From Ignavibacteriota bacterium (GTDB lineage Bacteria; Bacteroidota; Ignavibacteria; UBA10030), in the NCBI GenBank assembly GCA_963701295.1, contig OY969585.1:3392001-3456000 (forward strand): a DNA stretch of 64,000 nucleotides. Direction: 5' to 3'. The notes under the pieces are model-generated. The model searched no databases. It was given only the letters and a program-made list of their open reading frames with translations, and was not told the DNA's origin. How positions within the stretch are numbered: the stretch's first letter is position 1; every line of letters starts with the position of its first letter. Positions 21,575 to 23,591 of this stretch are shown piece after piece. A program made the translations under genes and the position numbers.

Positions 21575-22582
21575 TCAGTTCATATTTAAAGTTATCCTAT
21601 CTACAGCGCTGTGCAATTCTCCACCAGAGAGATGAGAATATACTTGAGTAACGACAATCGATGTGTGCCCAAGAAGCTTCTGCACCTCATAAATCCCTAC
21701 CCCGTTCTGAACAAGCCAAGTTGCGAAGGTGTGACGTAAGCTGTGGAAATGTAATTTCTTATCCAATCCAGAAGCAATTACTGCTTGTTTAAAAAGGTGC
21801 GAGATTCTTGCCTAGTCCAGATTCCATCCTTTCTCACCTACAAATACAAATTCTGATCTATGTGGAAGTGATTCTAATATTCCAAGGGCAACTACGTTCA
21901 GAGGAACGACTCTTTCTTTACCGGTTTTCGTATGAAAGCTTTCTGAATTCATTATATAGATCTGCTTGTGTGAAAAATCGACCTGATCCTACTTGAGATT
22001 TGCTATCTCACCTCGGCGCAGACCTGTATTAACAGCAAACAACACGACATTCTTGAACCATTGTTTAGGAATAACAGTAAGGAGTTTATTCATCTCCTCC
22101 CTGTTTAAATAAATAGGACGTTGATGTGGAATAGTCAGAAGTCGAATAAACTTGAAAGGATTCTTTTCGAGAATCTGCCAACGAACAGCTAATCCGAATA
22201 TTGCTTTGACTGTTCGCAGATCAATATTCACTGAAATCGGTTTTAATCTTTTTAAGCGATCAGCTTTAAAGCATTCGATATCAAGGGGAGTAACTTTGTC
22301 GAGATGTTTGTCGCCAACTGACTTGATGAAGAATCTCATCGCATAAGTTGCCTTATCAGTAGTTCCTTTTGCATGATGAATCTTAGAATATTCAAGAAAC
22401 TTCTCGAAGAATTGTGATAAGGTTAGATGAGGATAGATCGAACTTTGTTGACCTTCAAACTCTTTTAAGAATTTCTTTGCATCAATTTTATTTTTAGTTT
22501 TTGTGGATATGCGCTGCCATTTGCAGGTGCTGTTAAGATAGCAAAGGTAATAGAATCCATTTGTTCGCTTGCTGAGATACAT
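21575..22582 (-). pseudogene. Tyrosine recombinase / phage-type integrase pseudogene
   Basis: NTGLRRGEI box I and HSLRHTFA..LLGH..TQVY box II; interrupted by TAG at 21989, a frameshift near 21915 and a second TAG near 21813. Confidence 0.9.
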
Positions 22583-22713
22583 TGCAACCTCCTCAAGAAG
22601 TGTGGATGAGGTGACTGCATAGGAACAAAATAGGAACACTATGGGGTTTTTAAGACAGGAGTTTTTGAAGTAAAAATTTCAATTCGATAACTTCAATTGT
22701 ATTATCAACTTTG

Positions 22714-22799
22714 TGCCGAGGGCGGGACTCGAACCCGCACGCCCTTTGCAGGACACAGGATTTTAAGTCCTGTGCGTCTACCAATTCCGCCACCCCGGC
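22714..22799 (-). tRNA. tRNA-Leu (TAA)
   Basis: GCCGGGGTGGCGGAATTGGTAGACGCACAGGACTTAAAATCCTG..GGTTCGAGTCCCGCCCTCGGCA, long variable arm. Confidence 0.97.
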
Positions 22800-22876: not shown

Positions 22877-22881
22877 TATTG

Positions 22882-22953
22882 AGGCGCCGGGCGGATTCGA
22901 ACCGTCGCATAAAGGTTTTGCAGACCTCTCCCTTACCACTTGGGTACGGCGCC
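22882..22953 (-). tRNA. tRNA-Cys (GCA)
   Basis: GGCGCCGTACCCAAGTGGTAAGGGAGAGGTCTGCAAAACCTT..GGTTCGAATCCGCCCGGCGCCT; one A-C mismatch in the T stem. Confidence 0.95.
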
Positions 22954-23190
22954 ATTCAACAACTTCTTTAGTTCTTCTCTTCCTTTTCCACTCTTCAAAA
23001 ACCTTTCACTTTTTTTTGCTTCATCTTCTGACTGAAATTGCTCTGAGTATATTAACTCAAATGGACGACGTCGTCTTGTGGATTCTGTTTTCCCACTATT
23101 ATGCTCAGCCAACCTCCGGTTAACATCTGAAGAATATCCTGTATAGTATTTTTTATCCTTTATACTTTTCAACACATAAACTTTGTTCAT
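22933..23190 (-). CDS. Small stand-alone GIY-YIG nuclease overlapping the 5' end of tRNA-Cys
   Basis: VYVLKS..YYTG..RRLAEHNSG..ST..RP..LIYSE..A...ERFLKSGKGRE. Confidence 0.93.
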   Translation of the reverse strand: MNKVYVLKSIKDKKYYTGYSSDVNRRLAEHNSGKTESTRRRRPFELIYSEQFQSEDEAKKSERFLKSGKGREELKKLLNGAVPKW

Positions 23191-23193
23191 TTT

Positions 23194-23243
23194 GACTCTC
23201 CCTTACCACACTTGCCCGCCGAAAGCGGGTGCGGTACGGCGCC
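23194..23243 (-). repeat. Duplicated 5' ~30 nt of tRNA-Cys with an 18-nt hairpin-containing insertion
   Basis: GGCGCCGTACC[GCACCCGCTTTCGGCGGG]CAAGTGTGGTAAGGGAGAGTC versus tRNA GGCGCCGTACCCAAGTGGTAAGGGAGAGGTC. Confidence 0.92.
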
Positions 23244-23328
23244 AGTATTTACATTATCAATGTTAGAACAAAAAACCCACTGCCTGAGAGGTAATGAAGC
23301 AGCGGGGCATATTCAAGCATTATACGCT

Positions 23329-23404
23329 TGGAGCGGGAAACGGGGCTCGGACCCGCGACCTCAACCTTGGCAAGGTTGCGCTCTACCAACTGAGCTATTC
23401 CCGC
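23329..23404 (-). tRNA. tRNA-Gly (GCC), CCA encoded
   Basis: GCGGGAATAGCTCAGTTGGTAGAGCGCAACCTTGCCAAGGTTG..CCCGCTCCA; T-loop reads TCCGAG. Confidence 0.95.
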
Positions 23405-23433
23405 ATTCATATTTCATTATCATCATTAATAAC

Positions 23434-23489
23434 GCAAGGAGTTACACTCTTCTCCGCTAAACGCGGATAGGCATCTGAGCTATTCCCGC
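23434..23489 (-). repeat. Degenerate duplicated 5' half of tRNA-Gly with a hairpin inserted in the D-loop
   Basis: GCGGGAATAGCTCAG (15/15 identical) ATGCCTA TCCGCGTTTAGCGGA GAAGAGTGTAACTCCTTGC versus tRNA GTAGAGCGCAACCTTGC. Confidence 0.85.
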
Positions 23490-23501
23490 TGAACTACCAC
23501 T

Positions 23502-23530
23502 AATATACCAAAAACGTCTGCACTCCGCAA
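23502..23530 (-). promoter_or_regulatory. Putative promoter of the tRNA Gly-Cys-Leu operon
   Basis: TTGCGG-17 bp-TATATT on the minus strand, 12 nt upstream of the degenerate tRNA-Gly copy. Confidence 0.5.
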
Positions 23531-23591
23531 GAGATTTTTCTTTAAACTAATTAATTTGGGCATCACTTGATGACAGGTTTCGCATCTTTTT

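Follow-up and report, generated by a model that had tools for sequence, protein, structure and literature searches.

A very probable selfish, tRNA-targeted cassette built around an 85-amino-acid GIY-YIG nuclease gene in an Ignavibacteriota bacterium

The tRNA-Cys insert and its empty alleles

On the minus strand of the window (the whole stretch of DNA that was analysed, 64,000 nucleotides in length), a gene for a small GIY-YIG nuclease was found between the first part of a tRNA-Cys gene and an intact copy of the same tRNA. This raises the question of whether the arrangement was produced by an element that moves into tRNA genes or is a leftover of tRNA duplication. It is considered very likely that the nuclease gene and the sequences duplicated around it form a selfish element targeted to tRNA genes (hereafter, the cassette). 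The features of the locus, in window coordinates and in order of transcription, are as follows.

23502..23531, minus strand: weak promoter-like sequence TTGCGG-17-TATATT, a host feature
23434..23489, minus strand: dead 5' copy of tRNA-Gly without an ORF, consisting of nt 1-15 (23489-23475), a 22-nt hairpin insert (23474-23453) and a decayed D-arm/anticodon-arm remainder to 23434
23329..23404, minus strand: intact tRNA-Gly(gcc) (ARAGORN, Rfam)
23233..23243, minus strand: tRNA-Cys nt 1-11, left copy of an 11-nt direct repeat in its original host position, its 5' flank continuous with the empty alleles of genomes G009, G001 and G004
23215..23232, minus strand: 18-nt oriented hairpin that forms the left junction of the insert, with CAAG as its tail
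23196..23214, minus strand: D-arm piece of tRNA-Cys, nt 12-28 plus two extra bases, retained and with its spacing to the ORF kept in the Cys cassettes compared
22933..23190, minus strand: gene for an 85-aa single-domain GIY-YIG nuclease (Pfam)
22943..23232, minus strand: complete 290-nt insert of hairpin, D-arm piece, ORF and new tRNA nt 1-11 (from comparison of filled and empty alleles and from a public contig)
22881..22953, minus strand: intact, regenerated tRNA-Cys(gca) (ARAGORN, Rfam)
22713..22799, minus strand: intact tRNA-Leu(taa), end of the cluster, a host feature (ARAGORN, Rfam)

An earlier description made from the letters alone (the sequence-only reading) had listed a tRNA-Gly half, tRNA-Gly, a tRNA-Cys piece, the ORF and tRNA-Cys in this order, and every one of these parts was found. 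Its promoter stands in part: the TTGCGG-17-TATATT element is recognizable by eye and conserved in relatives, but its consensus is weak and the element at 23531-23502 was not among the predictions of a promoter scanner run on the region. An Rfam scan of the locus returned the three tRNAs and nothing else.

The insert is situated between nt 11 and 12 of tRNA-Cys, and as the first 11 bases of the tRNA are duplicated, the gene remains intact despite the insertion. The regenerated copy is the only tRNA-Cys gene that ARAGORN identified in the genome. The last 21 nt of the ORF overlap it, with the stop codon lying within the D-loop, while the purine-rich end of the D-arm piece, a few bases before the start codon, forms a putative ribosome-binding site. 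The nuclease ORF is the sole gene in the 290 nt, no integrase being present. Directly downstream of tRNA-Leu(taa), a broken tyrosine-integrase gene was observed as two ORFs (21575-22639, minus strand), which is likely to be an island remnant unconnected to the cassette.

Comparison was made with 15 other genomes of the same genus, in four of which the locus was not seen. Genomes G009, G001 and G004 possess a near-identical 5' flank that runs straight into an intact tRNA-Cys, constituting an exact empty site. The difference between filled and empty alleles amounts to 290 nt exactly, the direct repeat measuring 11 nt, and a public contig that joins 22942 to 23233, skipping the 290 nt, likewise represents the empty allele. 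The claim that a minimal unit entered a tRNA gene and regenerated that gene, for which empty sites in close relatives had been proposed as a check, is borne out by these alleles. It had further been claimed that the intact tRNA is regenerated downstream, which is the case at this Cys locus but not throughout the family, where it can be found upstream or downstream. Empty alleles can also be explained by precise loss of a cassette through the 11-nt repeat. Six genomes (G008, G011, G007, G015, G005 and G002) are without the cassette but differ in their flanks, and G010 and G006 contain old, decayed Cys footprints without an ORF.

The spread of the cassette was found to be patchy. Its Cys junction motif occurs in nine of 277 genomes of the order, belonging to three families (reversed-pattern controls gave 0), and in none of the 15 other same-genus genomes. 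In those of the nine that were checked, the cassette locus is the same ribBA-linked tRNA cluster, and the same Cys cassette was identified in metagenome loci L329, L330, L331 and L333, with L332 having the mirror layout. An assembly artefact is an unlikely source of the layout, since the junction motif recurs in eight other genomes and in metagenome contigs, and a public contig spans the Gly footprint. None of the public sequencing runs aligned to the locus (best share 0.25) spanned the ORF of this strain; shares were below 0.1 for RNA runs.

Identities of the nuclease were compared to those of RibBA, with G044 omitted as its 48% match looks like a paralogue. Genomes G142 and G161, from different families, share 79% identity in the nuclease against 75% in RibBA, while the values are 64% against 83% for G161 and G165 of one genus, and 64% against 79% for G142 and the genome under study (G000). 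These values suggest transfer of the cassette between hosts; because a tree of eight Cys-clade ORFs was unresolved, with no starred branch, this suggestion is based on identity contrasts with a single marker. Turnover of cassettes is visible at tRNA-Leu(caa), which bears an upstream-type cassette in this genome and a different, downstream-type cassette in five genomes of the genus; the simpler reading is that this genome has lost the downstream one.

The dead tRNA-Gly copy had been described as a second instance of the same architecture within 600 bp, without the nuclease. The Gly and Cys hairpins belong to different families. The Gly hairpin takes the place of three tRNA bases, as is clear in G010, and the dead copy containing it is common to this genome, G009 and G010, with an exact empty site in G004. 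Among 86 genomes of the family the hairpin was identified in four, never with an ORF and once at tRNA-Gly(tcc) (in G124), and one search pattern recovered no nuclease-bearing Gly cassette among the 86. That the copy is a footprint of gene loss is plausible by analogy to G094, in which the second unit of a tandem has lost the interior of its ORF.

The nuclease and its homologues beside tRNA genes

The 85-aa protein was found to match the GIY-YIG domain (PF01541, E=1.1e-16) and no other Pfam domain, and as a one-domain protein it has no separate C-terminal DNA-binding domain. In an alignment of 24 homologues, Y5, Y16, G18, R26 and E62 are invariant and H30 nearly so; we take these conserved Tyr, Tyr, Gly, Arg, His and Glu residues to be the GIY-YIG catalytic positions. 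The structure predicted for the protein (pLDDT 88.9) is closest in a fold search to UPF0213, HIGLE and Slx1, and small proteins of this type are presumably those labelled SLX1-like (cd10449) in CDD, where cd10448 is the assignment used for the Ssn family. An NCBIfam scan of the protein gave nothing over cut-off, with the group I intron endonuclease model far below it, and an ESM Atlas search returned generic GIY-YIG clusters and nothing more specific. Eight Cys-type ORFs (one of them broken) share 55-80% identity and are under purifying selection (pN 0.13-0.29, pS 0.69-1.12, saturated).

All four recognisable copies of the nuclease in this genome adjoin tRNAs. The three copies outside the window locus are given below, and a further nuclease remnant was observed near tRNA-Asn (G000:C1 40457-40579).

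G000:C1 3297422-3297830: copy linked to tRNA-Leu(caa), upstream type
G000:C1 2356095-2356520: copy linked to tRNA-Ala(ggc), downstream type
G000:C1 2067150-2067541: copy linked to tRNA-Ser(cga), broken

A search of 61 relatives gave matches in 53 genomes (266 matches, of which 150 were listed), with named relatives that carry homologues including Acidobacteriaceae and Bacteroidota MAGs. In total 123 loci were examined (30 returned, 80 regions fetched from the list, 10 from named genomes and three from the genome itself); these homologue samples are biased to best matches and kin are not independent. A tRNA gene lies within 600 nt of the ORF at 101 of the 123 loci, in no case on the opposite strand. 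Partial tRNA duplications, which the sequence-only reading had proposed to look for in the flanks of homologues, proved to be common, with a dead tRNA copy scoring at least 33 at 83 of the 123 loci. Among the best 80 of 534 metagenome matches, 55 were beside a tRNA, all 55 on the same strand, and 38 had a scored dead copy; the chance rate in the genome under study is 1.5%. When flanks were reversed as a control, the dead-copy score was reached at 0 of the 55 metagenome loci, so that dead copies beside the nuclease exceed chance. A phylum-wide profile search matched 77 of 121 genomes, a number that may include other small GIY-YIG types; of 23 new loci examined from it (30 having been returned), 16 had a scored dead copy, two a nearby tRNA without a copy and five no tRNA.

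Tandem arrays were also identified, two or more ORF copies being present at 19 of the 123 loci, with a maximum of 14 in tandem. This maximum is that of locus L140 (G002:C2 364200-369156), where 14 units of 298 nt, each composed of a nuclease gene and a dead 3' part of tRNA-Pro, run to the end of the contig. Small indels in this array concentrate in the hairpin, where sequencing errors may account for them.

The nuclease was found to be faithful to tRNA type. A quick tree was built with 127 non-identical ORFs of at least 85 bits (from 162 matches) and six NTS-flanked proteins, in which nuclease clades follow the type of tRNA, while upstream and downstream layouts are mixed within clades. In 87 of 94 cases, the nearest homologue in another genome was located at a tRNA for the same amino acid, where shuffling gave a mean of 15; kin among these are not independent. 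The possibility that the two layouts are strand mirrors of one another was rejected, as hairpin orientation is identical in both.

The constant strand of the ORF (that of the tRNA in 101 of 101 and 55 of 55 cases) would be consistent with copying through RNA, in which a joint transcript of cassette and tRNA would be the template that a reverse transcriptase, acting in trans, copies into DNA at a nuclease nick. GIY-YIG domains prime target DNA in this manner in Penelope-like elements. Such a route is nonetheless highly improbable: the 290-nt cassette encodes no reverse transcriptase, the borrowing of a promoter and ribosome site explains the orientation equally, and the duplications also take in terminators and untranslated host flanks, on either side. 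Furthermore, SsnA, a GIY-YIG nuclease that cuts single-stranded DNA beside its hairpin, does not bind RNA (PMC11893778).

No tRNA is nearby at 22 of the 123 loci and 25 of the 80 metagenome loci, which include a clade that has terminal inverted repeats, so tRNA homology appears to be dispensable for some relatives. This sister clade (a branch of 14 rows, for example L030, L046, L047, L049, L307, L308 and L310) was observed away from tRNAs as units of approximately 285-370 nt. Some of its copies interrupt, as judged by eye, integrase-like and four-helix-bundle-like coding sequences, and the clade has the appearance of a small insertion sequence that encodes a GIY-YIG protein. Among viral contigs, none of 16 homologue loci was beside a tRNA, and thus no phage vehicle was found with this query.

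Hairpins in dead tRNA copies and attC-like repeats

The dead tRNA copies (n=94) were found to contain 131 inserts of at least 14 nt, of which 98 possess a perfect stem of at least five pairs, against 36 expected by shuffling. These 98 are distributed among the T-loop (27), the D-arm region (29), the surroundings of the anticodon arm (35) and elsewhere (7), and the proposal that D-arms are the target is therefore not upheld. Seven hand-defined hairpin families account for 83 of the 131 inserts, each family inserting preferentially where a particular short motif lies on the 3' side, and in eight dead copies one family occupies two sites. A figure of 130 of 131 inserts without deletion was discarded, since the aligner splits anticodon-arm replacements into small blocks.

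Hairpins were also identified without the nuclease gene, which supports the suggestion of the sequence-only reading that the hairpin may be a non-autonomous passenger. In G142, a full-length second copy of tRNA-Cys downstream of the ORF bears the Cys hairpin twice, each time before CAA, with another intact tRNA-Cys upstream of the ORF. A leftover half tRNA with the Cys hairpin and no ORF is present in G122. Hairpin-only insertions extend to integron attC-like repeats in the genome under study, where 16 of about 93 such repeats, arranged in several arrays, carry an inserted oriented hairpin. The 17 hairpin copies in these repeats share one orientation (reversed 0), have the tail CAAG/CAGG in nine cases and TAAA in eight, and occupy about three positions beside empty repeats (for example G000:C1 2392813 with the hairpin and 2399269 without). 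They may go back to a small number of insertions whose copies multiplied along with integron cassettes. An integron integrase scoring over cut-off is encoded at G000:C1 3566721-3567662.

The mark put forward by the sequence-only reading, YCCGC-N5-GCGGR, does occur genome-wide, but its 15 matches against five, eight and nine in three Markov simulations make it barely enriched, and a REP-like expansion under this motif was rejected (15 against 5-9 expected). A longer oriented hairpin with a CAAG/CAGG/CAAA tail is the informative motif, and it too is of low copy number, with 17 matches of hairpin plus tail across this genome. Footprints in the form of ORF-less tRNA fragments or hairpins were observed near G000:C1 857689, 2036554, 2549696 and 2067125, beside tRNA-Leu(tag), Thr(cgt), Gln(ttg) and Ser(gga). 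Away from tRNAs, a hairpin of the TCCCGAC type was observed in nine near-identical copies of another repeat (G000:C1 226328, 234902, 2413185 and six more). A GIY-YIG gene of the Ssn type, with its own and different repeat array, was observed at G000:C1 2938878-2939195; this gene and other enzymes of the genome could have moved the attC hairpins.

That hairpins exist without the gene, in a genome that has an Ssn-type gene, is in line with a passive origin of the locus, in which the nuclease gene would be mostly vertically inherited or serve a host role, dead tRNA halves would be remnants of ordinary tandem duplication, and hairpins mobilised by a different enzyme would gather in unselected DNA. 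Purifying selection fits a host role equally, and direct repeats expand and contract unaided. Against this stand the occurrence of the hairpin at an identical junction in every Cys cassette across three families, the fidelity of clades to tRNA type, the patchy presence with exact empty sites and the discordance with hosts. In addition, the repeat of the Ssn-type gene differs from the Cys hairpin, and the published SRM pattern flanks none of 143 ORFs within 500 nt and is absent at this locus, although this pattern seems to miss divergent Ssn repeats. A passive origin is accordingly held to be improbable, and a selfish element remains the preferred reading.

Possible mechanism and relation to known systems

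For movement of the cassette, nick-initiated and homology-guided copying into a tRNA gene is moderately favoured. The nuclease would nick single-stranded, folded tRNA-gene DNA at the place where the hairpin sits, with a short sequence preference such as that of SsnA. The nicked end would then invade a donor (incoming DNA, a circle or the sister chromosome) by means of the tRNA sequence that flanks the cassette on both sides, and copying over the hairpin, ORF and second tRNA copy would result in a filled allele with one live tRNA, situated upstream or downstream depending on where repair begins and stops. Copying of the hairpin by itself would plug the target. In a sole tRNA gene this would be lethal, whereas tRNA copies that are dead or redundant, and attC stem-loops, would tolerate it. 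The regenerated tRNA would remain a target, giving rise to tandem arrays, while recombination between direct repeats would lead to precise loss of the cassette. Expression is expected to be low, with the gene carried on the tRNA transcript and its stop codon removed by tRNA 5' processing.

The sequence fits a cut in the target and a cut in a hairpin-bearing donor alike and cannot tell them apart. In the latter case, following the geometry of Ssn, the nuclease would bind its own hairpin in single-stranded cassette DNA, either incoming or displaced, and cut this DNA a few bases to the 5' side of the hairpin, after which host recombination would anchor the trimmed fragment in the conserved tRNA gene, with the intact tRNA gene left uncut. 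This would account for the sparing of the live tRNA and has a parallel in SsnA, which cuts a few nucleotides upstream of its hairpin and needs a C right after the palindrome (PMC11893778); the junction described here lies 3 nt 5' of the stem, and the stem is followed by a C-led tail. However, the Cys, Arg, Ser and Pro clades each have both layouts with the same hairpin orientation, which one fixed donor cut would not give, and shared target-side motifs at insertion sites, together with hairpins in second sites, argue for recognition of the target. The protein also falls outside the sampled Ssn clade. Donor cutting is for these reasons regarded as unlikely.

The likeness to the Ssn family consists of a small (<150 aa) single-domain GIY-YIG gene, a short oriented hairpin and the presence of hairpin copies elsewhere in the genome (PMC11893778). 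The analogy to RAYT/REP systems drawn by the sequence-only reading is already in print for Ssn/NTS, a different clade, for which an IS200/REP-like origin was proposed (PMC11893778, Chenal et al. 2025). In contrast to that family, the cassette gene lies within a tRNA gene that has been duplicated, its site also exists as empty alleles, and tandem arrays occur. Six NTS-flanked proteins of viral contigs, used as stand-ins for SsnA, branch apart from the cassette proteins in the quick tree (SH-aLRT 100), and the nuclease scores 117 bits on its own profile against 31 on an Ssn-type profile. The term 'tRNA' does not occur in the main text of PMC11893778, and in 12 of its 14 supplement files it occurs in a Neisseria gene table only.

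A second likeness is to SegB of phage T4, a free-standing GIY-YIG homing endonuclease that is tied to and co-transcribed with tRNA genes and cuts them; its stop codon is possibly lost by tRNA processing, which may curb it (PMC2330249). The SegB recognition motif spans the T-loop, a frequent hairpin site in the cassette family. Unlike the cassette, SegB is phage-borne, makes double-strand breaks, has NUMOD3 as a binding part at its C-terminus and takes flanking genes along when it moves, and the passages of PMC2330249 compared describe neither tRNA duplication nor a hairpin passenger. Traits shared with Seg-type homing endonucleases in general are the retention of catalytic residues and the existence of filled and empty alleles at one locus. 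REP/RAYT systems (REPtrons) resemble the cassette in that short tagged hairpins (GTAG/CGTC-tagged palindromes) are spread in trans by an adjacent small enzyme, some entering other palindromes (PMC3733652), and in that a cognate hairpin is dispersed in the genome without the gene. They differ in that RAYT is an HUH tyrosine transposase, whereas the cassette enzyme is a GIY-YIG protein by Pfam and fold, and the Cys hairpin is without a GTAG or CGTC tag and has copies in the tens rather than the hundreds.

The cassette thus works like Ssn/NTS and like SegB homing and is a member of neither. No description of a tRNA-gene nuclease cassette was found in the open PMC and bioRxiv literature, and the cassette is real, widespread and apparently undescribed in print. 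A bolder and tentative proposal is that it represents a new class of ultra-small mobile element, in which an 85-aa GIY-YIG nuclease alone would mobilise its own gene and hairpin passengers of 20-60 nt into folded single-stranded DNA (tRNA genes and integron attC sites), the tRNA gene serving as portable homology arm, promoter and ribosome site, with the sister clade moving as an insertion sequence using the same type of enzyme. If true, it would be among the smallest autonomous selfish elements known (<300 nt) and a parasite of the most conserved genes of bacteria. Small 'hypothetical' GIY-YIG proteins, which form a very abundant class, would gain a role. Many of the pseudo-tRNAs, and of the GC-rich palindromes located close to tRNA genes or within attC sites, would be accounted for, and clades that differ in target motif would offer a range of very small nucleases with specificity for a structure or a sequence. 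The open idea of the Ssn paper, that hairpin-nuclease pairs are mobile elements, would also become directly testable, because filled and empty alleles give a predicted cut site to the base.

Islands and prophages that integrate into tRNA genes use a tyrosine integrase and an attP site that restores the tRNA. The cassette shares with them an insertion within a tRNA gene that is regenerated by a carried fragment, and is distinguished by the lack of an integrase, a total size of 290 nt, a hairpin-plugged dead copy and tandem arrays. Larger insertions that split tRNA-Cys in the anticodon arm, as expected of integrative elements, were observed at loci L003 (G010) and L275 (G122).
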